From IMG/VR virus record IMGVR_UViG_3300030058_000001: 60,131 bases of DNA; one strand, 5' to 3'. Positions 324-60,131 of this stretch are shown here, piece by piece. Under the pieces are notes generated by a model. It was not told the DNA's origin, did no database searches, and saw only the letters and a list, made by a program, of their open reading frames with translations. The position numbers were made by a program, and so were the translations under genes. The first letter of the stretch is position 1. Each line of letters starts with the position of its first letter. The stretch comes from a virus.

Positions 324-1416
324 GCGCGCCAACATACTCGAAAGTGGCGCAGGGGCGCCCCCCGAAGCCTGGCGCGTGCTCCTTATCTGCGCTCTGCAAC
401 GTCGAGCTTCTCCCCTCGCGTGGGCTGTATGTCCCGGCTCGTTTCTCTAGTGACCAGTGCTGGGGCCACTTGCCGAACGCACGAATCAGCGCCGGGTGCG
501 CCGGGTAGGTCCGGAAGCGAAATCCAGCCGAGCGATAGGCAGCGCCGAGCTTCTCAGCAAGAATCATCGCCAGCCCCAGTCCCTGCCAATCAGGCAGCGT
601 TACGAGACGCGAGAGCCCCTTGATGTTCTTTACTTTTGGGTGTGGTCGATGCAGAACGCCGGCGAACGCGGCAGGCTGCCCGTTGGCGTAAAGGCAATAG
701 CAGACTGCAGCGTGATTCAGATCCGCCGTCAAATAGTGAAACGGCGCGAAGAGGGCCCAGTATTCGTATCGGACGCGACGAATCTCAATGTCAATGGGTG
801 GCCGTCGTTGAAGTGACCTCCGCGCAAAGTGCATGGTCGCTGGCTCCAGCACCCAATCGGGCTGCAACCAATCGAGGATGTCATAGTGACACGACGCCGC
901 CACGAACCGCGGCTTGCCACGCTTACGCACATACTTCTGAACGGCATGCGCGCCGATCTGCGCCACCTGGCGATCGACCACCGAGGTGAACTCATCCATG
1001 GCTATCAGCGCCTCGCTTGTCAGCAGACGCCGCGCCAGTTCCACGCGAAACTTCTCGCCGTTCGATAAGACCGCGTATGGTCGCATCCACGCCGGGATCG
1101 TGTTGAAGCCGACCGACTGACATATCTCCGAAATGTCCTGCATGGAGTGCGCAGGGTCGAAGTCATCCACGACGCTCTTGGCCTTCCAGGTGAGCTGCAC
1201 AGGCGCTGCGAACAGCCGCGAGAGAATGGACGACTTACCGCAGCCCGAGGGACCGACGATGAGTCCGACGTTCCAGTCGAACGTCTCAACGGGACAGTCG
1301 CCTTTGAACGCGATGCGCGCTCGCTCCGCGGCCGGCACGTCAAACATTGCTTCTAGTTGCTTCACGCGAACGGTGCGGTCGATCTGAGATTCGACTACGA
1401 AATCAATAGCTGGCAT
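283..1416 (-). CDS. ABC-type ATPase fused to a GNAT-like C-terminal domain
   Basis: Walker A GPSGCGKSS, signature-like LSNGEKFR, Walker B LIAMDEFTS. The C-terminal ~150 aa carry a GNAT motif-A-like DWQGLGLAMILAEKL. Confidence 0.6.
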   Translation of the reverse strand: MPAIDFVVESQIDRTVRVKQLEAMFDVPAAERARIAFKGDCPVETFDWNVGLIVGPSGCGKSSILSRLFAAPVQLTWKAKSVVDDFDPAHSMQDISEICQSVGFNTIPAWMRPYAVLSNGEKFRVELARRLLTSEALIAMDEFTSVVDRQVAQIGAHAVQKYVRKRGKPRFVAASCHYDILDWLQPDWVLEPATMHFARRSLQRRPPIDIEIRRVRYEYWALFAPFHYLTADLNHAAVCYCLYANGQPAAFAGVLHRPHPKVKNIKGLSRLVTLPDWQGLGLAMILAEKLGAAYRSAGFRFRTYPAHPALIRAFGKWPQHWSLEKRAGTYSPREGRSSTLQSADKEHAPGFGGRPCATFEYVGAPMERAEAQEFLAA

Positions 1417-2021
1417 TTCAACCCCTGGGCCTCAAGCTGTTGCATGATCGTGGCCTGATGCTTCTCCCCATCGCATTCGACAATGACGCGATAGGATAGC
1501 CCTTGCTCCTGCGTCATCCCCTGCAGCGGGCTGGCCTCGCCGAATAGCTTGCTCAGCTCGTCGCTTGTCCAGAACTGGGCAAGGTCTACTTCGCCGGCCA
1601 TGTCCTTGAGAATCTCGGCATCCCATTCCAGTGAGACCTCGCCGGTCCTGTTGTCCGCGATCGCCAGCGCCTTCGCCGCGTCGTCCACATCCAGGTCCAG
1701 ATCCATGCGCTGCACGGCGACCAGTTGCTTGCCGCGCGTCTTCACCACCAGCACGTCGGCGAAACCCGCCTTACCCGCCTGCATCGCCGTCTTGTTCCCG
1801 GCAATAACCCGCCCGTGCTTGTCGAGGAGAATGGAACGACCGGCGCCATAGTCGCGCAGTGATGACGCGACCAGCTCGCCCCCGCGCTTGGTGCCCCGGT
1901 TGGCGTTCCGCTTGTCTGGGATCAGGTCGGTGAGTTGCAGAGTCCCGACAACTGGGACCGCTCTCGCCGACTGCTTTCTCTTTGCGACAGCCTTACTGAT
2001 TGACCTTGAAGCGACCGGCAT
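1395..2021 (-). CDS. ParB N-terminal (ParB/Srx) domain protein
   Basis: DKRNANRGTKRGGELVASSLRDYGAGRSILLDKHGRVIAGNKT is ParB-N-like. Start moved to the internal ATG at 2021 (AAGGA upstream); the longer ORF to 2363 has an implausible N-terminus. Confidence 0.6.
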   Translation of the reverse strand: MPVASRSISKAVAKRKQSARAVPVVGTLQLTDLIPDKRNANRGTKRGGELVASSLRDYGAGRSILLDKHGRVIAGNKTAMQAGKAGFADVLVVKTRGKQLVAVQRMDLDLDVDDAAKALAIADNRTGEVSLEWDAEILKDMAGEVDLAQFWTSDELSKLFGEASPLQGMTQEQGLSYRVIVECDGEKHQATIMQQLEAQGLKCQLLIS

Positions 2022-2230
2022 TTTCCTTGACCAACTCTCGGGGAAGAAACAAAGTTGTAAACCTGCGAAAGTTTGCGGATGGCTTGCAGTGCGGTACAGG
2101 GTCGGGCATTGTAGAGATTTGACCCCCCCTCCCCCCTTGCATGGGCGCAGGGTCTCCGCTGGGCCTACTTGTGGCCCCGTCCGTGTGCCCAGAGGCTCAG
2201 TGGCGAGGTCAACGAGGATTGCTGGTGCGC

Positions 2231-2527
2231 TTAGGCGAGCGAGGACATGAACTCGTCGTTTAGGTGATCGAAGATGGTAGCGTTCGGAACGTGCGCAACG
2301 AACAGGCCGTGCTTCGCAGTGATTGTCACCTTTAGGCTTGCAGTGGCGTCGTAGTAGGCCCACGCGAAGTCAACGCCCTGCACTTCACACGAGCCGGTGT
2401 CACCGCTGCTTACAAGCTTGGTGACCTTCGAGTTTGTGCCCAACGTCGCGACCAGCTTTTTATACTCCTCCGCTGGGATAGGTGAGAACGTTGCGCCGGT
2501 GGGGTCGTACTGCAGAAGCGGCGGCAT
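2231..2527 (-). CDS. hypothetical protein
   Basis: 98-aa ORF abutting the stop of the upstream gene, co-oriented with its neighbours. Confidence 0.5.
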   Translation of the reverse strand: MPPLLQYDPTGATFSPIPAEEYKKLVATLGTNSKVTKLVSSGDTGSCEVQGVDFAWAYYDATASLKVTITAKHGLFVAHVPNATIFDHLNDEFMSSLA

Positions 2528-5994: not shown

Positions 5995-7180
5995 GAACGG
6001 AAACGTAGCCCTCCAGATGCCAGGAGAGGCAAACATCGCCAGCAGTACAGCACGTGTGCAGGCCGAGACCCAGGCCGCCATCATGGTTGCTCAGCGATTC
6101 AAGCGTAGCGAATCACAGGCTCGCCAAGATTTGCTGAACGCAGTCAAGGCCTCGCCGCGGCTGGCCGAGAAGGCAACCTACAGCTTTCCACGTGGCAAGA
6201 AGCAGGATCCGGTCACAAAGGAATGGGTTGAAAACATTGTGACGGGACCGTCGACATACATCGCACGCGAGGGCGCTCGCGTCTGGGGCAACCTGGTTTA
6301 CGGCACTGAGGTGATTCGTGAGACCGACACCGACCGCCAGATACGCAGCTTCGCATGGGACATGCAAACGAACATGCGATGCCTCGCGGAAGCAACTTTC
6401 AAGAAGCTAATTCAGCGGACCAAGTGGACCAACGTCAACGGGAAGCGCGAGAAGAGCACGGAGTGGATTGAGCCCGATGAGCGCGAGATGCGCGAGCTGA
6501 GCAACAAATACGCATCCATCGGCGAGCGCAACTGCATCCTGAAAGTAATTCCGTCGCACCTGGTCGACGAGGTTCTAGAGGTTGCACGTCAGGTCACCAA
6601 GGAGGAAGCAAGCAAGCATCCCGAAGCGGTCCGCGCAAAGCTGGCCGATGCCTTTCTCACTGTCGGCGTTAACGTTGCAATGCTCGAGGACTACCTTGGC
6701 CATCCGCTCAAGGACACAACCCCGGATCAGATTGCCACGCTGCGCGGCATCTTCACCGGCATCCGTGAAGGCAACTCTGTTTGGGACGACTACCGCGTAT
6801 CGACCACGCTTCCGACTGAAGAGGAGGTTCCACAACTTCCTCAACTCCGCGAGTTGGCGAAGAAGCTGAAGTGGAACGACGCCAAACTGTCAAGCGAGAT
6901 CGGCCGCAACATTTCTGACATCGCACGGTTAGTGGTCATCATGTCCGAGCTGGCCGTTAAGGCCGCCGCCGCAACACCGGCAAAGACTGAGACAAAACCC
7001 GCCACGGCTGACACGCAATCCTCCCAGGGTGAGACGAAGGCGCCGGCCGCAGAGACGAAGCCGGCAACAGAAGAGACGGCGGCAAAGCCGAAGACACCGA
7101 CAGGTGAGGTCATTCCGCCCAAAGGCAAGCGCACGACGTCACCAGCCCAAGGCAAGCTCGGCGACGCCCAGGACTTCTAG
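5984..7180 (+). CDS. putative single-strand annealing / recombination protein with a low-complexity Pro/Thr/Lys/Ala-rich tail
   Basis: Sits upstream of a Cas4-like exonuclease. Central region YSFPRGKK...VTGPSTYIAREGARVWGNLVYG...ERNCILKVIP recalls RecT/Red-beta-type annealing proteins, but the family is not certain. Confidence 0.4.
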   Translation: MDSENGNVALQMPGEANIASSTARVQAETQAAIMVAQRFKRSESQARQDLLNAVKASPRLAEKATYSFPRGKKQDPVTKEWVENIVTGPSTYIAREGARVWGNLVYGTEVIRETDTDRQIRSFAWDMQTNMRCLAEATFKKLIQRTKWTNVNGKREKSTEWIEPDEREMRELSNKYASIGERNCILKVIPSHLVDEVLEVARQVTKEEASKHPEAVRAKLADAFLTVGVNVAMLEDYLGHPLKDTTPDQIATLRGIFTGIREGNSVWDDYRVSTTLPTEEEVPQLPQLRELAKKLKWNDAKLSSEIGRNISDIARLVVIMSELAVKAAAATPAKTETKPATADTQSSQGETKAPAAETKPATEETAAKPKTPTGEVIPPKGKRTTSPAQGKLGDAQDF

Positions 7181-7183
7181 CAA

Positions 7184-7627
7184 ATGGCTTACGACAAAAC
7201 AGAAGTTGGAGTTTCGAAGTCGCAGGATGCCATTCGAAAGCTGATCTATGGCCACCGCGGTACAGGTCTGATGCTGGTCTCTGAGCCGCCCCGTGAGGGC
7301 TTCGAGGCCAAGATCATGGTCGAGAATGTTCTGTTCCACATCCGCGTAATGGCAATCTGCAAGAACGTCACGAAAGACCGCAACGGCTACCTGCGCACGC
7401 AGAACGGCCTTGCGACAGCCATCGATCAAGAGAACCGCCGCGTGTGGCGCGTTCTGTACTGGCACCTAAAGGCCCTCTTCGAGGCAGCCGACTCAGGAGT
7501 CATCGACATCCGCACTGTCGTGATGCCTTACGTCGTTCTCAAAGATGGACGCACGTTGGCCGATCACGTCATTCCACGCATGCCGGATCTAATGACGATT
7601 ACAGACACCAGGAGACTGCTCGCATGA
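7184..7627 (+). CDS. hypothetical protein in the recombination module
   Basis: 147-aa ORF; its stop overlaps the next start (ATGA at 7624). Confidence 0.55.
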   Translation: MAYDKTEVGVSKSQDAIRKLIYGHRGTGLMLVSEPPREGFEAKIMVENVLFHIRVMAICKNVTKDRNGYLRTQNGLATAIDQENRRVWRVLYWHLKALFEAADSGVIDIRTVVMPYVVLKDGRTLADHVIPRMPDLMTITDTRRLLA

Positions 7628-8790
7628 ACACCATTGATTCACAGAAGGCCACGCTCATCAGCAGCACAACGCCTTTGACCATAGAGCAGGTCACCGTAGC
7701 GCCGAAGGCGGAGCCGCCACCACTTAGTCAGTCGATGTATGAGTCGATGGCGTGCCCAGCCTCCTACCAGGCGCAATACGTTGCAGGCATCCACTCACCG
7801 CCCAACGAGTACAGCTCCCTCGGACAAGAGGGGCATCACTGCATGTCGCTCTACGTGGCCCACCTCCGTGACACACAGCAGCAGGAAGATTGGAACTTCT
7901 TCAAAAGCTTGCTACCAACCTTCACAGAGGAAGCCCAGGAGATCTTGAACGGTTTCATAGGCTCCATGAAGTTTAATCCGAAGACGATCCTCACAACGGA
8001 GTTGCGCTTTTACGATCCAGACGCAGCCGGCACCCCGGACCTGGTGACGATGGAAACGATGGAAGACGCGACCATCTGGGATTACAAAAATTACTTCGAG
8101 ATGATCAATCCCGAAACCTTCCAAGCTAAGCTCTATCCACTTCTTCTCTTCCGTCACAATCTAAATCTGAAAACCGTTCGGTTCGTGCTTGTGTTCATGC
8201 GCTACGGCAGGACCCGCGATGTCGTGTGGACTCGAGATCAGGTGCCGCTGCTTGAGAAGGTGTTGAGTGATGCGAGAGCACGGCAACGCCAGATCCACCA
8301 GATTCAAGGCCTCGCGCAGGCAATCCCAGGGAAAGCGTGCGAGTATTGCCCACTGCTGCGGACCGCACGATGCCAGGTAAATGACTGGAATCCATATGCA
8401 ACAATGACGGGTCCAGAACGACTCCGATATGTGATCTATCTTCGTGCTGCGATAAAGTCAAGCAACGAGATCCTTCGCACCGCTGTTCGCTTTGCAAGCA
8501 TTCAGACGGAGGACGGCAACGGCAAGTTATACGAGGCCCGCTTCGTGCCGGGAGAGAAGCGCACCCTGCCGCTGATGCCCACGCTCAAAGTGATCGAGCA
8601 ACACGCGGATGAATCGGGCGAGGATCTAACCCCGAAGCTGAATGTCTCCAAGACTTCACTCGCAAGCCTGCGCAGCGCAAAGAAGCGGGTGCTCCTTGAC
8701 CAGGCGCTGACAGACATCGAGACCGTGAAGGAGATCACCAGCTTCAAAATAAGCAGAATTAACCCCGAACATCCCGATGAAGAACCATGA
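7624..8790 (+). CDS. PD-(D/E)XK exonuclease, Cas4/RecB-like with a Cys cluster
   Basis: N-terminal Cys (MACPASYQAQY), GTPDLVTME...TIWDYKN (D...D/E-x-K) and C-terminal CEYCPLLRTARC. Start set to ATG 7624 with GGAG upstream. Confidence 0.7.
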   Translation: MNTIDSQKATLISSTTPLTIEQVTVAPKAEPPPLSQSMYESMACPASYQAQYVAGIHSPPNEYSSLGQEGHHCMSLYVAHLRDTQQQEDWNFFKSLLPTFTEEAQEILNGFIGSMKFNPKTILTTELRFYDPDAAGTPDLVTMETMEDATIWDYKNYFEMINPETFQAKLYPLLLFRHNLNLKTVRFVLVFMRYGRTRDVVWTRDQVPLLEKVLSDARARQRQIHQIQGLAQAIPGKACEYCPLLRTARCQVNDWNPYATMTGPERLRYVIYLRAAIKSSNEILRTAVRFASIQTEDGNGKLYEARFVPGEKRTLPLMPTLKVIEQHADESGEDLTPKLNVSKTSLASLRSAKKRVLLDQALTDIETVKEITSFKISRINPEHPDEEP

Positions 8791-8860
8791 AGGCAGGGAG
8801 CACCAAACCTGCACGAGTGAACCATGATCCTGGAGAGCACCAAAGATTAGGAGTGAAGGA
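8779..8860 (+). repeat. Mini-array of five 18-19-nt units of the GAGCACCA / GAGTGAACCA motif family, in phase with the ATG at 8869
   Basis: Cores at 8779 (GAAGAACCA), 8796 (GGGAGCACCA), 8815 (GAGTGAACCA), 8832 (GGAGAGCACCA) and 8851 (GAGTGAAGGA). Confidence 0.7.
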
Positions 8861-8868
8861 AAGCAACG

Positions 8869-24882: not shown

Positions 24883-25595
24883 CGACGGGGACGGTCGTTA
24901 AGGCGCTGGCATCTAGCGAGCCAACCGGCATCCGCACGGAGATCATCTGTTCTTACGACATCCCCAGGCTGTTCTACCAGCACGTCAAAGGGTCGGCCGT
25001 CTGTCACGCGAGCACACTCGGCAGCGTGGTTCGTTATGCCCTAGAGCTTGGATACACGTCACGAAAGAAGAGGAGCCTAATGAACGTTGACGAGGTTGTC
25101 GAAGACTGGAAACGCACCATCACAGGGCTGGCCACTGCCCACGACAAAGACCAGGCTGACAGGTACGAGGCTGCGATTGAAAAGTGCCTGGGTCCGATCC
25201 TAGCAGCGCCAATAAGACAGGTGCGCGAGTTCTGCCCGAAGCTGCTGGCCGCCCTCAAGGCTGATCCTGCTATCCCGTTCCTTGTGTGGCGCGGTTACGA
25301 ACTATGGGTGGAGCACATCATCTCCAAGGCTCCCGATGAGGACATCAAGCTGCTGCGAACAGACTTGGCGGCAGAGATCACGGCCATGGTCGAGCAGGAC
25401 GTCAAGGACCAACTTCCTGGCGCGCTGATACGGGCCCTGCAGTGGCGATCACCAGAAACGCTCTCCGAGGTCAAAGACGCCGTGGTCGATGCGAAGGCGC
25501 GGGGAGAGAAGCCGCGGCTGCGCGGCCGCGAGAGTTGCCTCTTCCTGGAGCTTGGCGGGACCGAAGAAAACCCCGCGGTGTGCGTGCAGATATGA
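24879..25595 (+). CDS. hypothetical protein
   Basis: 238-aa ORF with ATGA overlaps on both sides. Confidence 0.55.
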   Translation: MTTGTVVKALASSEPTGIRTEIICSYDIPRLFYQHVKGSAVCHASTLGSVVRYALELGYTSRKKRSLMNVDEVVEDWKRTITGLATAHDKDQADRYEAAIEKCLGPILAAPIRQVREFCPKLLAALKADPAIPFLVWRGYELWVEHIISKAPDEDIKLLRTDLAAEITAMVEQDVKDQLPGALIRALQWRSPETLSEVKDAVVDAKARGEKPRLRGRESCLFLELGGTEENPAVCVQI

Positions 25596-25915
25596 CGAAA
25601 CGCAAGCCGAACAAGGAACTCGAGGCCTACTTCCGTCACGCAAAGAACACGCTGTTCCCGAAGGTTAAGAGCGCGGCGGTTTCAATTACAATTCTGAACT
25701 CGACGCCAGATCCAAAGCTTTGCATGGAGCTGGGCGCGAACATCCTTTTCGACAAACCAATTATTCTTTGGGTTCCTGACCGGGAGATGTGGATACCTGA
25801 AAACCTGCGGCGCGTTGCCACCGCTATCGTGTTCGGAAGCACCTCGGACCCAGACACGCAGCAACGGATACAGGCCGCGCTGACAGAGGCCATGAAGGAC
25901 AAGAGAGCACAATGA
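25592..25915 (+). CDS. hypothetical protein
   Basis: Start at the ATGA overlap 25592. Confidence 0.5.
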   Translation: MTKRKPNKELEAYFRHAKNTLFPKVKSAAVSITILNSTPDPKLCMELGANILFDKPIILWVPDREMWIPENLRRVATAIVFGSTSDPDTQQRIQAALTEAMKDKRAQ

Positions 25916-26181
25916 GAATCGTCGTCCGCGTCTTTGTAGACCAGAAGTTGATTCTCCGCGAGAACCTTGACGTTAAGGAGGAGGATCTTGATCAGCTTCT
26001 GTCGCTCTACGCCAAGAGACACGCCGCCGCAATAGTGACAATGCAAGGGTGGTCTCCGCAGTGTCTGCACATGATTGAGTTTGAGTGTCTCGATGAGCCG
26101 ATGGAGTCTCGCTTCCTGCGTTTCGGCACCGACTCCAGAATGATGCGTAATCCGATACCAATGGACCTGAATGACAACTAA
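25912..26181 (+). CDS. hypothetical protein
   Basis: ATGA overlap at 25912. Confidence 0.45.
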   Translation: MRIVVRVFVDQKLILRENLDVKEEDLDQLLSLYAKRHAAAIVTMQGWSPQCLHMIEFECLDEPMESRFLRFGTDSRMMRNPIPMDLNDN

Positions 26182-27486: not shown

Positions 27487-27711
27487 ATGGCGACTTATGC
27501 ATCGGTTACAACTCTGAGCCGAGATGGCCAGACGTTCGTTCGGGCCCTCGTGGTCTGCGCGAAGTGTCGAACCAGTCATCCGCTCGATATTCCCATCGCA
27601 GAGTGGCAGCGCTGGCAGTCTGGAGACTTGGCACAGAACGCGCTGACGTCACTCGACCCAGCCCAGCGCGAGCTGCTGATCAGCGCGGAATGTGTGGCAC
27701 TTGCTGGATGA
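27487..27711 (+). CDS. hypothetical protein
   Basis: 74-aa ORF directly upstream of int. Confidence 0.45.
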   Translation: MATYASVTTLSRDGQTFVRALVVCAKCRTSHPLDIPIAEWQRWQSGDLAQNALTSLDPAQRELLISAECVALAG

Positions 27712-27817
27712 AGCTCTTTCCGAACGAGTGACGGCGCGGAAGCCTTCTGTTTTCAAGCACGGCGCTGCCGGTGTGATAGTCTCGACAGGTTTCGAGACTA
27801 AGAGGGAGAACGAGGCA

Positions 27818-28975
27818 ATGAAACTGACTAAACGCAGCGAGATTTACCACTATGCTTTTATACGCGACGGTGTGCGATACAGGGGAACGACGGGCACGGG
27901 GAACAGAAAAACCGCCGAGGCAATCATGCTGGAGAAGATTGATTCGCTCGCGAAGGGGAGGGCCGGCATTGTCGAGCGGCGAGACGCGCCAACCTTCAAA
28001 TCCTCGATGGATGCCTTTCTTGCCTACTCCGCAAGTAAGCATGCCGGAACGCCATCAACTCACAAGCGAGCCGTCGTCAGCTCCGTCGCGTTGCTGAAAC
28101 ACTTCGATCCGCAGACGTCGCTCGGCAACATCAACGTCGCCGCCGTCGATCAGTTCAAAGTTGCGCGCCTGAACGACTTCGCGACCGCACGTGGTAAGGG
28201 CCCGAACTCGCGTAAGAAGACAAAACGAAAGATCTGCCCCGCGACCGTGAATCGTGAGTTGGCTCTGTTGCGCATGGTCTTCAACTTCGCGCTTCGTGAC
28301 GACACCATCTTGCTCAGAACTCCGTTTCACAAAAATGGCGTCGAGTTTCTCGATGAGGACGACGACACCTTTCGCGTGATGACGTATCAGGAGTGTGAGC
28401 GGTATCTTGCGAACGCAACGCCCACTCTTTATGACGTCGCCTCGCTGATCTTGGAGACGGGGATGCGGCCGGGCGAGGTCTGCGCGATGGAGCCGCGGCA
28501 TCTTCATCTCGACCAGACGCACCCGGATCAGAGCTTCTACAAGGTGACGAAGGGCAAGACGAAAGCCGCGCGCAGAAAAGTGTCGCTGACGGCGCGAGCC
28601 TTCGCCATTCTGACCGCGCGGCTGGCTCACTGTAACGGCAGATTTCTCTTTCCCCACGAGCTGGACTCAGACAAGCCCATGCCGAAGATCAACAACGCGC
28701 ATGATCGCGCCCGCAAGGCGGCGAACATTGGCTACTTCCGGCTCTACGATTTTCGCCACACCTGGGCGACGCGATGCACCGAGGCCGGCGTCGACGCCGT
28801 GACTCTGGCGGCGAAGCTGGGACACTCCAAGCTGACGATGGTCTTACGCTACGCCCACCCGGGCCAGGAGCATCAGAACGAAGCGACGGCGAAGCTCGAA
28901 AAGTATCAGGCGCCCCGTCAGGCGGCCGCCCAACTCGCGCAGCTCAGCGAGATGAAAAACCAAACGATTCAGTGA
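27818..28975 (+). CDS. int: tyrosine recombinase / phage integrase
   Basis: C-terminal catalytic region ...LYDFRHTWATRCTEAGVDAVTLAAKLGHSKLTMVLRYAHP (R...H-x-x-R...Y). Start set to ATG 27818 (MKLTKRSEIYHYAF...) with GAGG upstream. Confidence 0.9.
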   Translation: MKLTKRSEIYHYAFIRDGVRYRGTTGTGNRKTAEAIMLEKIDSLAKGRAGIVERRDAPTFKSSMDAFLAYSASKHAGTPSTHKRAVVSSVALLKHFDPQTSLGNINVAAVDQFKVARLNDFATARGKGPNSRKKTKRKICPATVNRELALLRMVFNFALRDDTILLRTPFHKNGVEFLDEDDDTFRVMTYQECERYLANATPTLYDVASLILETGMRPGEVCAMEPRHLHLDQTHPDQSFYKVTKGKTKAARRKVSLTARAFAILTARLAHCNGRFLFPHELDSDKPMPKINNAHDRARKAANIGYFRLYDFRHTWATRCTEAGVDAVTLAAKLGHSKLTMVLRYAHPGQEHQNEATAKLEKYQAPRQAAAQLAQLSEMKNQTIQ

Positions 28976-28982
28976 CGAACGG

Positions 28983-29007
28983 GAAAAAGTGACACAAATT
29001 CGACACT
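28983..29007 (+). repeat. Putative integrase arm-type site on the int-proximal arm
   Basis: gaaaaaGTGACACAAattCGACACtt shares the TGACACAA core with 29191-29247. Confidence 0.45.
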
Positions 29008-29053
29008 TAAAAATTCTCGCTGTCGTTCAGAAGTCGCCTAAGTTGTTGAAGGG

Positions 29054-29190: not shown

Positions 29191-29247
29191 GAAAAAACTG
29201 ACACAAAAATGACACAAATGGAAAAAACTGACACAAAAATGACACAA
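29191..29247 (+). repeat. Two tandem 27-nt direct repeats (30-bp period), each with two TGACACAA boxes; putative integrase/Xis arm sites
   Basis: gaaaaaactgacacaaaaatgacacaa occurs at 29191-29217 and again at 29221-29247. Confidence 0.75.
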
Positions 29248-36005: not shown

Positions 36006-37310
36006 TTATGTGATCCAGAAATTCGACCCATCCCAAACCATGTCGACGGACTGGTATTGAATCGAGAGCGTCATGCTGGCCGAGCGATCAATCGTGCCTG
36101 ACACCGGCGTGATGGTGACAACTCCGGTGCCGATGTTTTTTATGGTCAAGTTCTGTCCGACAAGCAAGCCTGAAGTAGTAACCGTGACTGTGGTCGCTGA
36201 GGCAGAATTCATCAGCACATAACTGTCGGTGATCAGCGTAGTGTAATTGGCTGTTTTGCTCTGAAAACCCCCAAAGGTAGCAATGCCGGTCACGACGAGG
36301 TTTCCGGTCTCCGTCAGATTGCCGGAGGCGTCCCAGCGAGCGCCGCCCGAGTAAGCGCCGTCAGCGATAACGAAGCCTGTTGTACCGCTGTAAAGTATCC
36401 CCGAATCTAGCGCCTGGATGATCCCGCCGGCTCCAATCGATCCGCCATAGAGTCCTATTCCGTTAGAACCGTTGACGATGTTTATCGCTTGCCCGGTCGT
36501 GGTTATAATCACTCCCAAGGTATTGATGTATGACGTGGTGGTGAGTGAAGCCGCACTGACCGCGCCGCTTACCGCAAGGGTGCCCGTGATCCCCACGTTG
36601 CCGCTGAAGGCCGTCGCGGACATCGTGGCAGGGAGTCGCGCCGCGGCTAGCGTACCGCTCGCGATATTAGAAGCGATCGTCGTGTCCGTCGTCGCCGAAG
36701 GCGCGAAGGCCGTTCCGTTGGTTTTCGTGACCACGAGAGCGCCGGCGATCGACAGAGTGCCATCCCCGCTGATCGTCTTCGGCGCGTAGGCGCTGGCTGA
36801 CTGCGCGATGGGAATCTGAGCTGACGCCGGCGCCGTGGCCGTGGCGAGGCCTCCCTGGCCCACCACGAGAGGTGTAGAGAGCGCTGTGGCGGTTGCTGCA
36901 TTCCCGGTCGTAGACTGATTGAAGGTCGGGAAGTTCGTGAGATTCGCCGCGCTGAAGGTAGGCGCTGCCGCAAAGCCTGGAGCTGCCGTGCTCCCCGTGA
37001 AATTACCGAAGACTGAGTTCGCCGCCACTGTTGCCGCCCCGGTTCCGCCATTAGCAACCGCGACGGTGCCTGTGACGTTCGCAGCCGTCCCAGTCGTGCT
37101 CTGATTGAGTGTGGGGATGTCGGTGGCTACCAGAGCGCGCAGAGACGAAATGCCGGTCGCCGCTGCTGGCGTCGCAACGACCAAGCCTTGTGCTCCCGAA
37201 GGAAGCGTCGGAACCTGAGCCGATATATTGCCAGACCCATCCATTTGCCAGGTCGCGTTGACGTTTCCCGATGTGGCAGCCGGAGTCGTATTGCTAAAAT
37301 TTCCACTCAT
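36006..37310 (-). CDS. tail fibre protein (shaft and tip) sharing repeat cassettes with 37500..38933
   Basis: IPTLNQSTTGTAANVTG and LTNFPTFNQSTTGNAATATAL cassettes. Ala/Thr/Gly-rich. Confidence 0.65.
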   Translation of the reverse strand: MSGNFSNTTPAATSGNVNATWQMDGSGNISAQVPTLPSGAQGLVVATPAAATGISSLRALVATDIPTLNQSTTGTAANVTGTVAVANGGTGAATVAANSVFGNFTGSTAAPGFAAAPTFSAANLTNFPTFNQSTTGNAATATALSTPLVVGQGGLATATAPASAQIPIAQSASAYAPKTISGDGTLSIAGALVVTKTNGTAFAPSATTDTTIASNIASGTLAAARLPATMSATAFSGNVGITGTLAVSGAVSAASLTTTSYINTLGVIITTTGQAINIVNGSNGIGLYGGSIGAGGIIQALDSGILYSGTTGFVIADGAYSGGARWDASGNLTETGNLVVTGIATFGGFQSKTANYTTLITDSYVLMNSASATTVTVTTSGLLVGQNLTIKNIGTGVVTITPVSGTIDRSASMTLSIQYQSVDMVWDGSNFWIT

Positions 37311-37499: not shown

Positions 37500-38933
37500 T
37501 TAGCCCATGACCACAACGCGATACTGAGCCGTGGTCGGTGCCGTGGCGAAGATCAGCGTCAGCGTGTTGGTGCTGGTGAGCTGTACATCGCACATCACGA
37601 CGTTGAACGGCGTCGTCGCAAGATACACCTTGGCCTGAACATCCTGGGTGCCGAGGTTATGCGTCACGACGATGCTCGTGGTCGATCCGTCTCCCACGTT
37701 CGCTGCAAACCTTGTCATGAAGCCGAGGCCGGTCTTTGCGGCCGCTGCGGTCGCGCCGCCTGTTCCTCCGGATGTGACCGCAAGCGTGCTCGAGAGCCCT
37801 GCAGCAGTTCCAGACGTGTTTTGATTCAGCGTAGGAAACGCTGTCATGTTTGCTGCTGAAAGAGCCGGCGCGTTCGTTAGAGTGGGTGCAACGGCAGCGG
37901 ACCCGGACCCGTGCGATACGACAACCATGTCGCTCGCCGCAGTGTTCCCTGCCAGAAACGCCGTAGTGCTCGCCGCAGACTGATAATGGATGGACCCAAT
38001 CGCACCCCCTGCTACGTTGGTCGTTGTGCCAGCCGTCGTCGCTGTCGCTGCATTCCCGGTTGTGCTCTGATTGAGCGTCGGGAAACTTGTCATATTTGCC
38101 GCGCTCAACGCTGGCGCATTTGAGAGTGTCGGCGCTGCTGCCGTTGATCCCGTTCCGTGCGACACCAGGACCGTATCCGTCGCCGCGGTGTTTCCCGAAA
38201 GCATCAAAGTGGTACTTGCCGCAGACTGGTAAGGTATAGAGCCGAGAACGCCCGCGCTCAGGTTGGTCGCTGTGGGCGAGGTCCCAGAGAATTGCACCCA
38301 GGCGACCGATGTCGTTCCAGGAGTAATCGTTCCCTGCGTGTTGACAACATAGGCAGCACCCTGATTGACCGTGCCATCTTCGACGAACACGAAAGCGCCC
38401 GCGGTGTAGTTAGTCGACGAGTTGCAGTCAGCCGAGCGAACAGGAGCGCCCGAAGAGCTGACGACATAAATTCCGTTGTCTGAACCGCTGGCCTGATTCT
38501 TGATGAGAATGCGCTGGCCGGTTGCGAGCGTGACGCCATCGATGATCTGACCGCTCGCGAAGGACGTCGCTAGCGTTCCCGCAACCGTGGTGGCCACCGC
38601 GACCGATGCTTTGACGCTAAGTCCAAGCGCAGACTGATCAACATAGGTTTTCGTCGCGGCATCGTTCGGATTCACTGGTTGCGCGAGATTGGTAAGCGAT
38701 TGATTATTGAAGCTCAGAGTCGATTGCGGCACAGCAAACTGATCGAGTCTGTTAACCAGCGACGCCAGCGTCTGAACCGCCGTGCCGTCATATACGTGCA
38801 GCGTGTGGGTGCTCGTGTTCTCCCAAATCTGACCTTCGACGGGCGTGCTCGGATCAGTACCAAGATTCTGAATCCTCGCATTTTGGAGTTCCTGCTGGCT
38901 GAGGTTTATCGGGCTTAGATACGTGATGGCCAT
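37500..38933 (-). CDS. tail fibre protein with an internal 82-aa tandem duplication
   Basis: Fibre N-terminus. SAANMT(S/A)FPTLNQ.T.G.AA... unit repeated (DNA about 37820-38015 vs 38066-38260). Confidence 0.7.
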   Translation of the reverse strand: MAITYLSPINLSQQELQNARIQNLGTDPSTPVEGQIWENTSTHTLHVYDGTAVQTLASLVNRLDQFAVPQSTLSFNNQSLTNLAQPVNPNDAATKTYVDQSALGLSVKASVAVATTVAGTLATSFASGQIIDGVTLATGQRILIKNQASGSDNGIYVVSSSGAPVRSADCNSSTNYTAGAFVFVEDGTVNQGAAYVVNTQGTITPGTTSVAWVQFSGTSPTATNLSAGVLGSIPYQSAASTTLMLSGNTAATDTVLVSHGTGSTAAAPTLSNAPALSAANMTSFPTLNQSTTGNAATATTAGTTTNVAGGAIGSIHYQSAASTTAFLAGNTAASDMVVVSHGSGSAAVAPTLTNAPALSAANMTAFPTLNQNTSGTAAGLSSTLAVTSGGTGGATAAAAKTGLGFMTRFAANVGDGSTTSIVVTHNLGTQDVQAKVYLATTPFNVVMCDVQLTSTNTLTLIFATAPTTAQYRVVVMG

Positions 38934-59919: not shown

Positions 59920-60131
59920 GTGACAGGCACCGAAACACTCTGCAAATGCATCACGCTTCACGCGCACTGGGCCGAGGCCATCTTCGCTCTCGGCAAGGAT
60001 GTAGAGAACCGCACCTGGGGGACCCCGTACCGCGGCCTCCTGGCGATTCACGCTGGGGCACAGGTGGATGCCGACATCTGCGGAACGCTTCTGCTGAACC
60101 CGCATAGACTGAGACGCTCTGCCATTATTGG
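59920..60131 (+). CDS. ASCH-domain protein, N-terminal part (continues at 128..323 across the circular junction; ~135 aa in total); GTG start
   Basis: In-frame stop at 59902-59904, then GTG 59920. The translation ...KCITLHAHWAEAIFALGKDVENRTW... continues into ORF 60..323. Confidence 0.5.
   Translation, partial: MTGTETLCKCITLHAHWAEAIFALGKDVENRTWGTPYRGLLAIHAGAQVDADICGTLLLNPHRLRRSAII
60005..60131. repeat. Terminal direct repeat, copy 2 (identical to 1..127)
   Basis: Exact identity by eye. Confidence 0.95.

Follow-up and report, generated by a model that had tools for sequence, protein, structure and literature searches.

A probable two-unit satellite TIGR array between the exonuclease and SbcC/Rad50-like genes of a temperate phage encoding TasA

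Between the exonuclease gene (stop codon TGA at 8788-8790) and the SbcC/Rad50-like gene (start codon ATG at 8869) of a temperate phage, a run of short direct repeats at 8779-8868 leads up to the start codon in phase, which raises the question of whether these repeats serve the translation of the downstream gene, bind a protein as DNA or encode something of their own. The window analyzed here (60,131 nucleotides) is the complete, circular genome (~60 kb) of this phage, which probably belongs to the phages of Acidobacteriota. Pyrinomonadaceae/Acidobacteriota are the candidate hosts, among them the MAG GCA_036006625.1, in which relative L121 occurs. Our results indicate that the 8779-8868 copy is very probably a two-unit, dual-repeat satellite TIGR array, the effector gene of which, tasA, lies at 15612-16550 and is accompanied by other arrays in the neighboring gaps; the genome holds one tasA, five arrays and ~30 well-formed guides. 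TIGR-Tas, in which TIGR stands for Tandem Interspaced Guide RNA, was first described in 2025 and is an RNA-guided DNA-binding system, and the locus therefore represents a known kind of system and reveals no new mechanism.

Repeat architecture in the exo-sbcC gap and across the window

The repeats in the exo-sbcC gap start at 8779 (GAAGAACCA), 8796 (GGGAGCACCA), 8815 (GAGTGAACCA), 8833 (GAGAGCACCA) and 8851 (GAGTGAAgga). The sequence-only reading had described five units filling the gap between the exonuclease stop and ATG 8869, with the start codon one period past the last repeat, and we indeed found the repeats present at a spacing of 17-19 nt and the ATG 18 nt from the start of the repeat at 8851. 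However, what the gap contains is not a single motif repeated five times but two alternating repeat types in the order edge-loop-edge-loop-edge, that is, two units of 36/37 nt. The same organization recurs in five same-strand clusters at 8.8-17.7 kb, which are built of two kinds of 10-nt repeat in strict alternation, namely an edge (GAGCGAGCCA or GAGTGAACCA) and a loop (GAGAGYACCA), both beginning with GAG (box D) and ending with CCA (box C). The unit measures 10+8+10+8 = 36 nt, and the 8-nt positions between the repeats carry no information in the window parse; similarly, a set of 369 units taken from other phages has 0.01-0.13 bit in the spacer columns compared with 1.0-2.0 bit in the repeats. 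Two alternating repeats within the 8-12-nt range, variable spacers that are short (8-9 nt, at most 12 nt), a ~36-nt unit and the same boxes in both repeats are the properties by which dual-repeat TIGR arrays are recognized.

The first edge repeat, GAAGAACCA (8779-8787, plus strand), is degenerate at its 5' end and abuts the exonuclease stop TGA, and its last six bases, GAACCA, are the same as in the edge variant GAGTGAACCA at 8815. The presumed boundaries of the first tigRNA unit are 8783-8819 on the plus strand (AACCA-tgaaggca-GGGAGCACCA-aacctgca(c)-GAGTG); it is 37 nt long because its spacer B has 9 nt, and it scores weakly (E = 4.3) against an HMM made solely of units from other phages because of this extra base and the degenerate 5' edge. 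The second unit (8820-8855, plus strand; AACCA-tgatcctg-GAGAGCACCA-aagattag-GAGTG) has exactly 36 nt and is matched by the same HMM at E = 5e-4. It is followed by a 3'-truncated terminal edge repeat, GAGTGAAgga (8851-8868, plus strand), the second half of which has been replaced by AAGGA (8856-8860), the Shine-Dalgarno sequence that precedes ATG 8869. The copy thus encodes two predicted tigRNAs and a 3'-truncated edge turned Shine-Dalgarno region. Its richness in GGA and GAG and the position of the ATG in phase with the repeats are side effects of this layout, in which arrays take up intergenic gaps entirely and the last truncated edge is overwritten by the ribosome-binding site of the gene that follows. 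As the terminal edge lacks box C, and as processing in published minimal arrays required full edge repeats, this array possibly yields one mature tigRNA or none.

The claim that all copies share the orientation of the plus-strand early transcripts was borne out by a strong strand bias, and the counts were well above those in shuffled sequence. In the window, GAGCACCA has 14 sites on the plus strand and 1 on the minus strand, and GAGCRCCA has 21 sites compared with 8.2 +/- 3.1 in shuffled sequence, 18 of its 19 plus-strand sites falling in the five intergenic clusters. Searching the window with the HMM gave 26 matches at E <= 0.1, all on the plus strand and all between 8822 and 17675 (best minus-strand match, E = 2.8). 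Within the operon 8790-17727, units are present in each of the six gaps that exceed 30 nt.

Downstream of the exo-sbcC gap, the gap between the DnaB and HNH genes holds a single degenerate, possibly relic, unit at 13838-13875 on the plus strand, in which the first box C reads CAA and spacer A has 10 nt. A weaker run noted earlier at 13832-13882 therefore does parse as one unit, but a degenerate one with a marginal HMM match (E = 0.49). The main TIGR array (14423-15203, plus strand) comprises ~21 units, of which 18 are well formed; the other 3, near 14912-14985 and 15168-15203, are degenerate. The array opens with a 5'-truncated edge, AGCCA, overlapping the HNH stop codon TAG. Upstream of tasA, a single-unit array at 15546-15593 (plus strand; E = 1.6e-5) consists of an edge GAGCAAGCCA, a unit at 15551-15586 and an edge GAGCGGTAACCA, and is followed by the Shine-Dalgarno sequence AAGGAG (15597-15602) and ATG 15612, in agreement with the earlier description of a mini-array at 15546-15611 continuing into this start codon. 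Another tigRNA unit (16475-16510, plus strand; E = 1e-3) lies within the 3' end of the tasA frame, where it supplies the codons for ...LATITERTKTAER...; intragenic units have been described previously (bioRxiv 10.64898/2026.09.09.750476). An array of four units (16553, 16590, 16630 and 16668) plus a truncated end follows tasA at 16553-16718, and another of four units (17532, 17568, 17605 and 17641) follows the 248-aa gene at 17527-17680, both on the plus strand; the latter has the edge variant GAGTGA(A/G)CCA in common with the exo-sbcC array. Edge repeats bear variable insertions of 0-6 nt exactly between the halves GAGCG and AGCCA. They are truncated at the 5' end at 14423 (AGCCA), 16474 (TAGCCA) and 8779 and at the 3' end at 8851 and 17672 (GAGCAaagcg), and a 3'-truncated edge at the array end is typical of TIGR arrays (PMC12045711). 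Unlike in the typical TIGR description, a terminator scan revealed no rho-independent terminator-like site downstream of any window array, and a sigma-70 promoter scan found nothing near the arrays, although the host may not use sigma-70/terminator consensus sequences. The arrays appear to be embedded in the operon.

One role offered in the sequence-only reading was that of Shine-Dalgarno-like ribosome standby or decoy sites on early mRNAs. The repeats do begin with GAG or GGAG, and two arrays do end at a start codon, with a terminal degenerate repeat giving the Shine-Dalgarno sequence (8856-8860 and 15597-15602). However, such a role is extremely improbable on several grounds. Only two of the six unit-bearing gaps abut a start codon, ~60 of ~65 repeats are far from any start codon, most units being hundreds of nucleotides away, and relatives carry arrays of up to ~2 kb. 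Nor do relatives preserve the spacing to the start codon: the ATG follows the last edge at 18 nt in the window and at 11 and 56 nt in two syntenic relatives. Further, the invariant portion of the repeat in the 369-unit logo is CCA, not the purine run. The motif copies reported before the ATGs at 22586 and 30843 have the sequences described, but they are isolated, partial one-repeat matches with no partner repeats and no HMM match at E <= 10, and they occur at chance level; outside the arrays, the loop repeat at <= 1 mismatch was observed 6 times compared with 5.8 expected by chance.

The RCCA ending had also been likened to tRNA 3' termini. This likeness was not upheld, since ARAGORN returned 0 genes, Rfam gave no match at gathering thresholds, and RNA folding of the arrays was no better than that of shuffles (z = -0.72, +0.64 and +0.54, the second value being that of the main array at 14423-15203). 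Instead, the CCA ending is the box C motif, which is read by the Nop domain (PMC12045711), and the RNA of dual-repeat TIGR arrays has been reported as unstructured. Further candidates, considered before the link to Tas, were rejected. A repeat protein was dismissed because no open frame crosses the main array (longest stop-free stretch on the plus strand, 104 aa) and because no frame can be kept through units that vary between 36 and 38 nt; an IS110 bridge RNA was dismissed for want of a DEDD domain and of stem-loops; and Chi-like RecBCD decoys and CsrA/Hfq sponges were dropped as well.

The TasA protein

The gene at 15612-16550 (plus strand) encodes a 312-aa solo Nop-domain, TIGR-associated protein without a nuclease domain, as judged by phmmer, AF2 and Foldseek. 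In a phmmer search of the PDB, the protein matched TaTasR (9mty; E = 2e-10) and SpTasH (E = 1e-7). Its AF2 model (pLDDT 88.9, pTM 0.86) consists of helices only, with no beta-strands, and Foldseek placed TasH/TasR cryo-EM chains at all of ranks 1-11 (E = 4e-7 to 3e-4), followed by recombinases of the IS110 family, of which IS621 and ISCro4 were the next-best folds. The Nop-domain fold and coiled-coil dimerization helices expected of Tas proteins are thus present in the model. No HNH or RuvC domain was found in TasA, in which Pfam and PHROGs match only the IS110-type Transposase_20 region, and its alignment to SpTasH begins past the SpTasH HNH domain. By sequence and modeled fold, we assign the protein to the Tas proteins, subtype TasA; no tasA paralogue was found within the window.

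In a 41-sequence alignment, TasA Y253 (>= 90% conserved) and H261 (invariant) align with Y289 and H296 of SpTasH, which are the catalytic residues for pre-tigRNA processing (PMC13421893). Tyr253 and His261 therefore form a putative pre-tigRNA processing dyad, of the kind expected in the C-terminal processing loop of Tas proteins from dual-repeat clades. The C-terminal tail of TasA is not conserved among its homologues.

Relatives, guide targets and the proposed mechanism

The two-repeat architecture was found in > 118 viral contigs of IMG/VR, in many of which 10-120 units share one strand. A TasA homologue is encoded in 47 of these > 118 loci and lies on the strand of the array where checked (e.g. 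L011 and L014); it adjoins the array in every locus that extends far enough. No other neighbor gene of the window was found in > 2 loci; the HNH gene that stands alone before the main array, which we considered as a split TasH nuclease, was set aside because it accompanies tasA in 1 of 118 loci, in this lineage only. In related phages, the same array extends over as much as ~2 kb, with up to ~100 repeats per genome. In the window, arrays flank tasA on the plus strand, and the 8779-8868 copy, although 6.7 kb away, shares both strand and operon with tasA. Megablast of 6000-26000 and blastn of the main array revealed no nucleotide relatives among GenBank phages, no IMG/VR relatives were retrieved with the SbcC-like protein as query, and searching the literature with the repeat sequences yielded unrelated primers only.

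These co-occurrence data bear on the possibility that the repeats are DNA-level iterons, that is, double-stranded DNA sites bound by an O-like initiator or another phage protein and serving as an origin, centromere or silencing element. The direct 18-nt repeats do lie in a replication module with an O-like initiator (10756-11688) and DnaB (12356-13735), and plasmid iterons are of similar length. However, across ~47 unrelated phage loci the arrays accompany tasA and not any replication gene, every copy is on one strand, and up to ~100 repeats in a genome are far beyond any origin. In addition, the alternation of two repeats around random 8-nt inserts agrees with that of an RNA the processing of which has been shown experimentally and the edge of which is near-identical (PMC12045711). 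Iterons are accordingly a most implausible explanation, and the proposal that the element may work as RNA, either by receiving an RNA-binding protein or by being processed, agrees with the characterized TIGR arrays.

Syntenic relatives are informative about the exo-sbcC copy itself. Relatives L120 (TasA 82% identical) and L126 (77%) have an array of 3-4 units in this gap, in which the window's edge variant GAGTGA(A/G)CCA is kept and the spacers are different. L125, also syntenic, has no array there; the copy is therefore dispensable. By blastn, the exo-sbcC array of L120 pairs with the window array at 17527-17680, and four syntenic relatives have no tigRNA in common with one another. It is conceivable that 8779-8868 is a decaying, non-functional TIGR fragment, duplicated from 17527-17680, that merely occupies the gap and contains no working guide. 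The degenerate first edge, the 37-nt unit 1, the loss of box C from the terminal edge and the empty gap in L125 all fit such a fragment, as does the clearly degenerate unit at 13838-13875, which indicates that decay does occur in this genome. Nevertheless, we consider decay rather unlikely: unit 2 is perfect, with 36 nt and a consensus loop repeat, and is recognized by an HMM from unrelated phages, and two relatives have intact repeats in this gap with every spacer different, a pattern expected under selection on the repeats with the spacers free to change.

Next to this, we examined what the guides might target. The 8-nt 3' overhang described in the literature implies sites that read spacer A and then spacer B in reverse complement, and this geometry was searched with gaps of 0-2. 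The predicted 16-bp DNA targets of the exo-sbcC array are TGAAGGCATGCAGGTT (unit 1) and TGATCCTGCTAATCTT (unit 2). None of 30 guides had a target in the phage's own genome at <= 1 mismatch, and the 4 targets at 2 mismatches compare with 3-7 in three control geometries; the lone 1-mismatch match (23165) belongs to a control geometry and is within expectation. By this search, the TasA guides appear not to target the phage's own genome. Similarly, 531 guide pairs from all fetched loci gave 1 exact match in 1.2 Mb of related phage DNA, compared with 0-1 in controls and 0.29 expected. Targets of 16 nt are too short for database-wide searches.

In characterized TIGR arrays, cuts within the edge repeat divide the transcript into tigRNAs of 36 nt that are bound by a Tas dimer (PMC12045711, PMC13421893), targeting is by tandem spacers and box C is CCA (PMC12045711), and TasA has been described as an RNA-guided repressor (bioRxiv 10.64898/2026.09.09.750476). 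From these family members we infer the mechanism as a whole. The arrays would be transcribed within the plus-strand early/replication operon, and a TasA dimer would read the two boxes that bound each edge and loop repeat, box D (GAG) at one end and box C (CCA) at the other. The precursor would then be cut in mid-edge (GAGYG/ARCCA), probably by TasA's own Tyr253/His261 dyad, giving products of ~36 nt predicted to read ARCCA-spacerA(8)-GAGAGCACCA-spacerB(8)-GAGYG. The 0-6-nt insertions that fall exactly between the edge halves and the conserved dyad would fit such processing indirectly. The TasA2-tigRNA complex would bind a 16-bp DNA site made up of spacer A and the reverse complement of spacer B, one spacer pairing with each strand, and the outcome would be binding or steric repression rather than cleavage because TasA has no nuclease domain.

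Because the arrays occupy gaps of one early operon and TasA apparently has its own RNase dyad, maturation would cut the polycistronic mRNA at every gap. The dispersed mini-arrays might then double as TasA-dependent operon punctuation that sets the stability and translation of recombination and replication genes, a suggestion that we regard as quite unlikely. The gaps that would be cut are exo-sbcC, DnaB-HNH, HNH-tasA, tasA-p248 and p248-p84. Were punctuation true, a cut at GAGTG/AAGGA would leave the SbcC-like mRNA with its Shine-Dalgarno sequence at the very 5' end, guide production would be coupled to early gene expression, and the position of the exo-sbcC array, kept in three related phages, would be selected for both a cis effect and the guides.

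Under the satellite-array reading, the window and three syntenic relatives provide a clean natural context for asking what TasA guides target. The locus also calls for caution on the part of annotators, as TIGR arrays are easily mistaken for iterons, Shine-Dalgarno-rich leaders or spurious ORFs.

Comparison with known systems

Iterons of plasmids and phages and mycobacteriophage stoperators are, like the window repeats, short asymmetric intergenic direct repeats co-oriented with transcription. However, they are double-stranded DNA sites for a protein, whereas the window repeats alternate, enclose random 8-nt inserts and co-occur with an RNA-binding Nop protein. CRISPR arrays share with TIGR arrays a tandem repeat-spacer organization, transcription, cutting into guide RNAs and hypervariable spacers, but have repeats of 25-36 nt and spacers of ~30 nt compared with the two alternating 10-nt repeats and split 8-nt spacers of the window; unlike CRISPR, the window arrays have no cas or adaptation genes, and each of the two spacers would pair with a different DNA strand. 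Box C/D snoRNA-Nop5 RNPs and IS110 bridge RNAs likewise combine a Nop-type RNA-binding domain with two guide segments at box C/D-like motifs. In contrast to these, the window has no K-turn, L7Ae, fibrillarin, DEDD/RuvC or serine recombinase domains, and its guides are tandemly arrayed and unstructured.

The experimentally processed array of SpTIGR-TasH from Salicola phage CGphi29 (PDB 9W03, 9W04 and 21KL), also phage-encoded, has the same 36-nt unit of 10-nt repeats and 8-nt spacers (AAGCGAGCCA-N8-AAGACAACCA-N8). Its edge, AAGCGAGCCA, is identical to the window's GAGCGAGCCA at 9 of 10 positions, and both its repeats read AAG...CCA, with the CCA ending shared by the window repeats; the loop repeats are AAGACAACCA and, in the window, GAGAGCACCA. 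SpTasH is the best structural match of the window TasA, with Nop domains 28% identical (E = 1e-12) and the Y/H dyad kept. However, SpTasH has an HNH fusion, whereas the window TasA lacks an N-terminal HNH and therefore should bind DNA and not cut it. Further, the ~10 units of SpTIGR form a single array that ends in a terminator, compared with five arrays across 9 kb with no predicted terminator in the window.

The TIGR-TasA systems (FpTasA and MbTasA; Faure et al. 2025, Xu et al. 2026), which are prevalent in phages, resemble the window in having a solo Nop-domain effector beside dual-repeat arrays located upstream, downstream and partly within the tas frame; FpTIGR spacers have 9 nt compared with 8 nt in the window. 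Characterized TasA binds 36-nt tigRNAs and MbTasA represses transcription in an RNA-guided manner, and the window protein would, by likeness, be their orthologue. The cataloguing of TIGR-TasA systems used a 5-kb neighborhood, whereas one window array lies 6.7 kb from tasA within another gene pair. Overall, satellite arrays can thus lie > 5 kb from tas within other gene pairs, where neighborhood-based cataloguing would miss them.

Two alternating repeats in five plus-strand clusters

Direct reading of the interval between the exonuclease-like ORF (stop TGA at 8788–8790) and the SbcC/Rad50-like ORF (start at 8869) gave, for 8779–8868, GAAGAACCA tgaaggca GGGAGCACCA aacctgcac GAGTGAACCA tgatcctg GAGAGCACCA aagattag GAGTGAAgga aagcaacg, followed by ATG. 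The repeat coordinates and 17–19-nt spacing of a sequence-only reading were correct, but its five copies of one motif are instead two repeat types in strict alternation. TIGR arrays (tandem guide-RNA genes) have two alternating 8–12-nt repeats, edge and loop, with spacers A and B of roughly 9 nt; they flank a tas gene with a Nop domain on one or both sides, and both repeats begin with a common box D and end in CCA (box C) (Faure et al., PMC12045711). Parsed on this model, the element contains, on the plus strand, a degenerate first edge in its opening part, tigRNA unit 1 (8783–8819; 37 nt because spacer B has 9 nt), a perfect 36-nt unit 2 (8820–8855; HMM E = 5e-4) and, last, a 3'-truncated edge, GAGTGAA, in whose second half AAGGA now provides the Shine-Dalgarno sequence of the 8869 ATG. 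The edge variant GAGTGAACCA is the same as in the array at 17527–17680.

Strictly alternating repeats occur in five clusters of the window, always on the plus strand: 8770–8860, 14415–15203 (about 40 repeats), 15546–15611, 16465–16718 and 17515–17680. Both enrichment and strand bias were strong, with GAGCACCA found 14 times on the plus and once on the minus strand and GAGCRCCA at 21 sites versus 8.2 ± 3.1 in dinucleotide shuffles (18 of its 19 plus-strand sites lie inside the clusters). An HMM built from other phages' units, and hence independent of the window, gave 26 window matches at E ≤ 0.1, all on the plus strand and all in the five clusters; on the minus strand no match was better than E = 2.8.

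From 8790 to 17727 there are six gaps of more than 30 nt, and units occur in every one, although the unit at 13838–13875 is only degenerate. A stand-alone HNH endonuclease gene (13897–14424) ends in a stop codon that shares bases with the bare AGCCA at the start of the main array, and the unit at 16475–16510 sits within the 3' end of tasA; intragenic units at tas genes have been reported (Xu et al., bioRxiv 10.64898/2026.09.09.750476). Unit length varies by insertions of 0–6 nt exactly between GAGCG and AGCCA, consistent with the expected cut position. Naked array RNA was no more structured than shuffles.

These data bear on the suggestion that the repeats are ribosome standby sites. Arrays do abut a start codon in two of the six unit-holding gaps, but not in the rest, and the start codon that follows lies 18 nt from the last edge in the window, 11 nt in the relative L120 and 56 nt in the relative L126; therefore, the proposed in-phase ATG is not conserved. 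The single copies noted upstream of the start codons at 22586 and 30843 proved to be isolated partial loop-repeat matches with no properly spaced partners and no HMM match, and such near-matches are not enriched outside the arrays (6 versus 5.8 expected). We therefore consider standby sites extremely unlikely. A tRNA-like 3' terminus for the CCA end was likewise rejected by tRNA, Rfam and folding searches; the CCA is box C.

A TasA protein and its arrays in other phages

In Pfam and PHROGs, the 312-aa product of 15612–16550 gave only a weak IS110-type "Transposase_20" signal. A PDB sequence search ranked 9MTY (TIGR-TasR, E = 2e-10) first, followed by TasH entries (E = 1e-7) and IS621. A confident AlphaFold model from 37 homologues (pLDDT 88.9, pTM 0.86) was entirely helical, and its Foldseek ranks 1–11 were TasH or TasR cryo-EM chains, with the IS110-family recombinases ISCro4 and IS621 next. 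The protein contains no HNH or RuvC domain, and its alignment to SpTasH, the TasH of Salicola phage CGphi29, starts downstream of the SpTasH HNH domain. This Tas-like sequence and predicted fold without either nuclease domain identify the product as a TasA. In a 41-sequence alignment, SpTasH Tyr289 and His296, the pair reported to process pre-tigRNA autonomously as catalysts (PMC13421893), correspond to Tyr253, conserved in at least 90%, and to the invariant His261. A gene for a ParB-like protein (1395–2363, minus strand) is 13 kb away from tasA and on the opposite strand, and so is not the tasParB found in the operons of some TasA loci (PMC12045711).

Scanning IMG/VR contigs with the both-repeat pattern AGCCA-N9-11-GAGCACCA-N7-10-GAGC yielded more than 118 matching contigs, many with 10–120 units on one strand; in one locus, about 2.3 kb of array surrounds a single gene. 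Among the matches listed, the 312-aa protein was the only window neighbour that recurred (47 loci; co-oriented with the array in those checked, such as L011 and L014), whereas the exonuclease and O-like initiator occurred in none of the array loci and SbcC, DnaB and HNH each in at most two. HNH accompanied tasA in 1 of 118 other TIGR loci among the matches listed. Array and protein therefore form a two-part module, which moves between otherwise unrelated phages, and this association makes it most improbable that the repeats are DNA iterons.

A logo from 369 units of other phages showed the 10-nt repeat GAGCGAGCCA, eight positions of ≤ 0.05 bit, the 10-nt repeat GAGAG(C/T)ACCA and eight positions of ≤ 0.13 bit. 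In the 460-aa TasA homologue P0067, a C-terminal extension of about 10 SEPxxxRAPxxx repeats reads as an in-frame translated TIGR array (AGC GAG CCA ... AGA GCA CCA), which is either intragenic or an artefact of gene calling. The relative L123 (9644–11615; TasA 72% identical) shares the edge GAGCGAGCCA with the window and differs in its loop, GAGTGTTCCA, and could serve to seek covariation between loop repeat and TasA residues.

Syntenic relatives and genome context

Three syntenic relatives were recovered via TasA homologues: L120 (TasA 82% identical; a contig of a Pyrinomonadaceae MAG), L126 (77%) and L125 (72%). All keep the order HNH-array-tasA. L120 and L126 carry a 3–4-unit array in the exo|sbcC gap, with the same edge variant as 8779–8868 and entirely different spacers, and in L125 this gap is merely 4 nt; therefore, the satellite array at 8779–8868 is intact and recurrent, though dispensable. 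For this copy just one rival reading is serious, a decayed, non-functional fragment; it is unlikely because unit 2 is intact and relatives have intact arrays at this site. Directly 3' of the last TIGR array, L125 (12308–12625) and L126 (12220–12537) encode a 105-aa protein matching Pfam Ribosomal_S10, which has no homologue in the window.

Bases 1–127 recur exactly at 60005–60131, and the simplest reading is that the phage genome is circular, at about 60,004 bp, with its assembled ends overlapping; no nucleotide relatives were found among GenBank phages. Just 3' of the integrase gene (27692–28975), three copies of GAAAAAACTGACACAAA..GACAC (28982–29008 and 29191–29247) resemble arm-type sites of an integrase, located at or close to attP. 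CCTGAG/CCTGCT repeats of 6, 12 and 18 nt (11211–11269), within the O-like replication initiator gene (10756–11688), specify a linker rich in Pro, Glu and Ala and might, on the model of lambda O, serve as origin iterons too. Diverged direct repeats at 36886–36965 and 38038–38117, with shorter copies at 37079 and 37799 (39–80 nt, 72–82% identity), fall inside minus-strand ORFs (36006–37310 and 37500–38933) and probably arose when a protein module was duplicated, either internally or as paralogues.

Predicted targeting and relation to known TIGR arrays

By extension from characterised relatives, the arrays would be co-transcribed with the early operon, a TasA dimer would bind edge and loop repeats at their box C/D ends, and the precursor would be cut mid-edge, with the Tyr253/His261 dyad as the probable catalyst. 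The RNP so formed, of about 36 nt, would bind a 16-bp DNA site comprising spacer A and then the reverse complement of spacer B, a geometry deduced from the published 8-nt 3' overhang (PMC12045711; bioRxiv 10.64898/2026.07.30.739390). Because TasA lacks a nuclease, steric blocking would be expected, as demonstrated for MbTasA by reporter and EMSA assays (bioRxiv 10.64898/2026.09.09.750476). For the 30 guides, the phage's own genome contains no match at ≤ 1 mismatch, two-mismatch self-matches equal those of control geometries, and 1.2 Mb of DNA from related phages showed no excess of matches to the guides of all fetched loci; with 16-mers, database-wide target searches are uninformative. Candidate roles are host silencing, competition with other mobile elements and life-cycle control. 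TasA-dependent processing of intergenic arrays might conceivably also punctuate the operon mRNA.

The array of CGphi29, for which processing and targeting were demonstrated experimentally (PMC12045711), is AAGCGAGCCA-N8-AAGACAACCA-N8. Its edge repeat is identical to the window's at 9 of 10 positions, and both have 8-nt spacers; on this basis the window's edge is the GAGCGAGCCA/GAGTGAACCA type and its loop GAGAGCACCA. The AGCCA start, insertion site, unstructured RNA and intragenic unit are also consistent with a TIGR assignment. In one feature the window departs from the published description: no terminator-like site was found after any of its arrays. Of modest interest are the complete temperate-phage context, the absence of self-targets and the presence of five arrays in one operon, one of them a satellite 6.7 kb from tasA.
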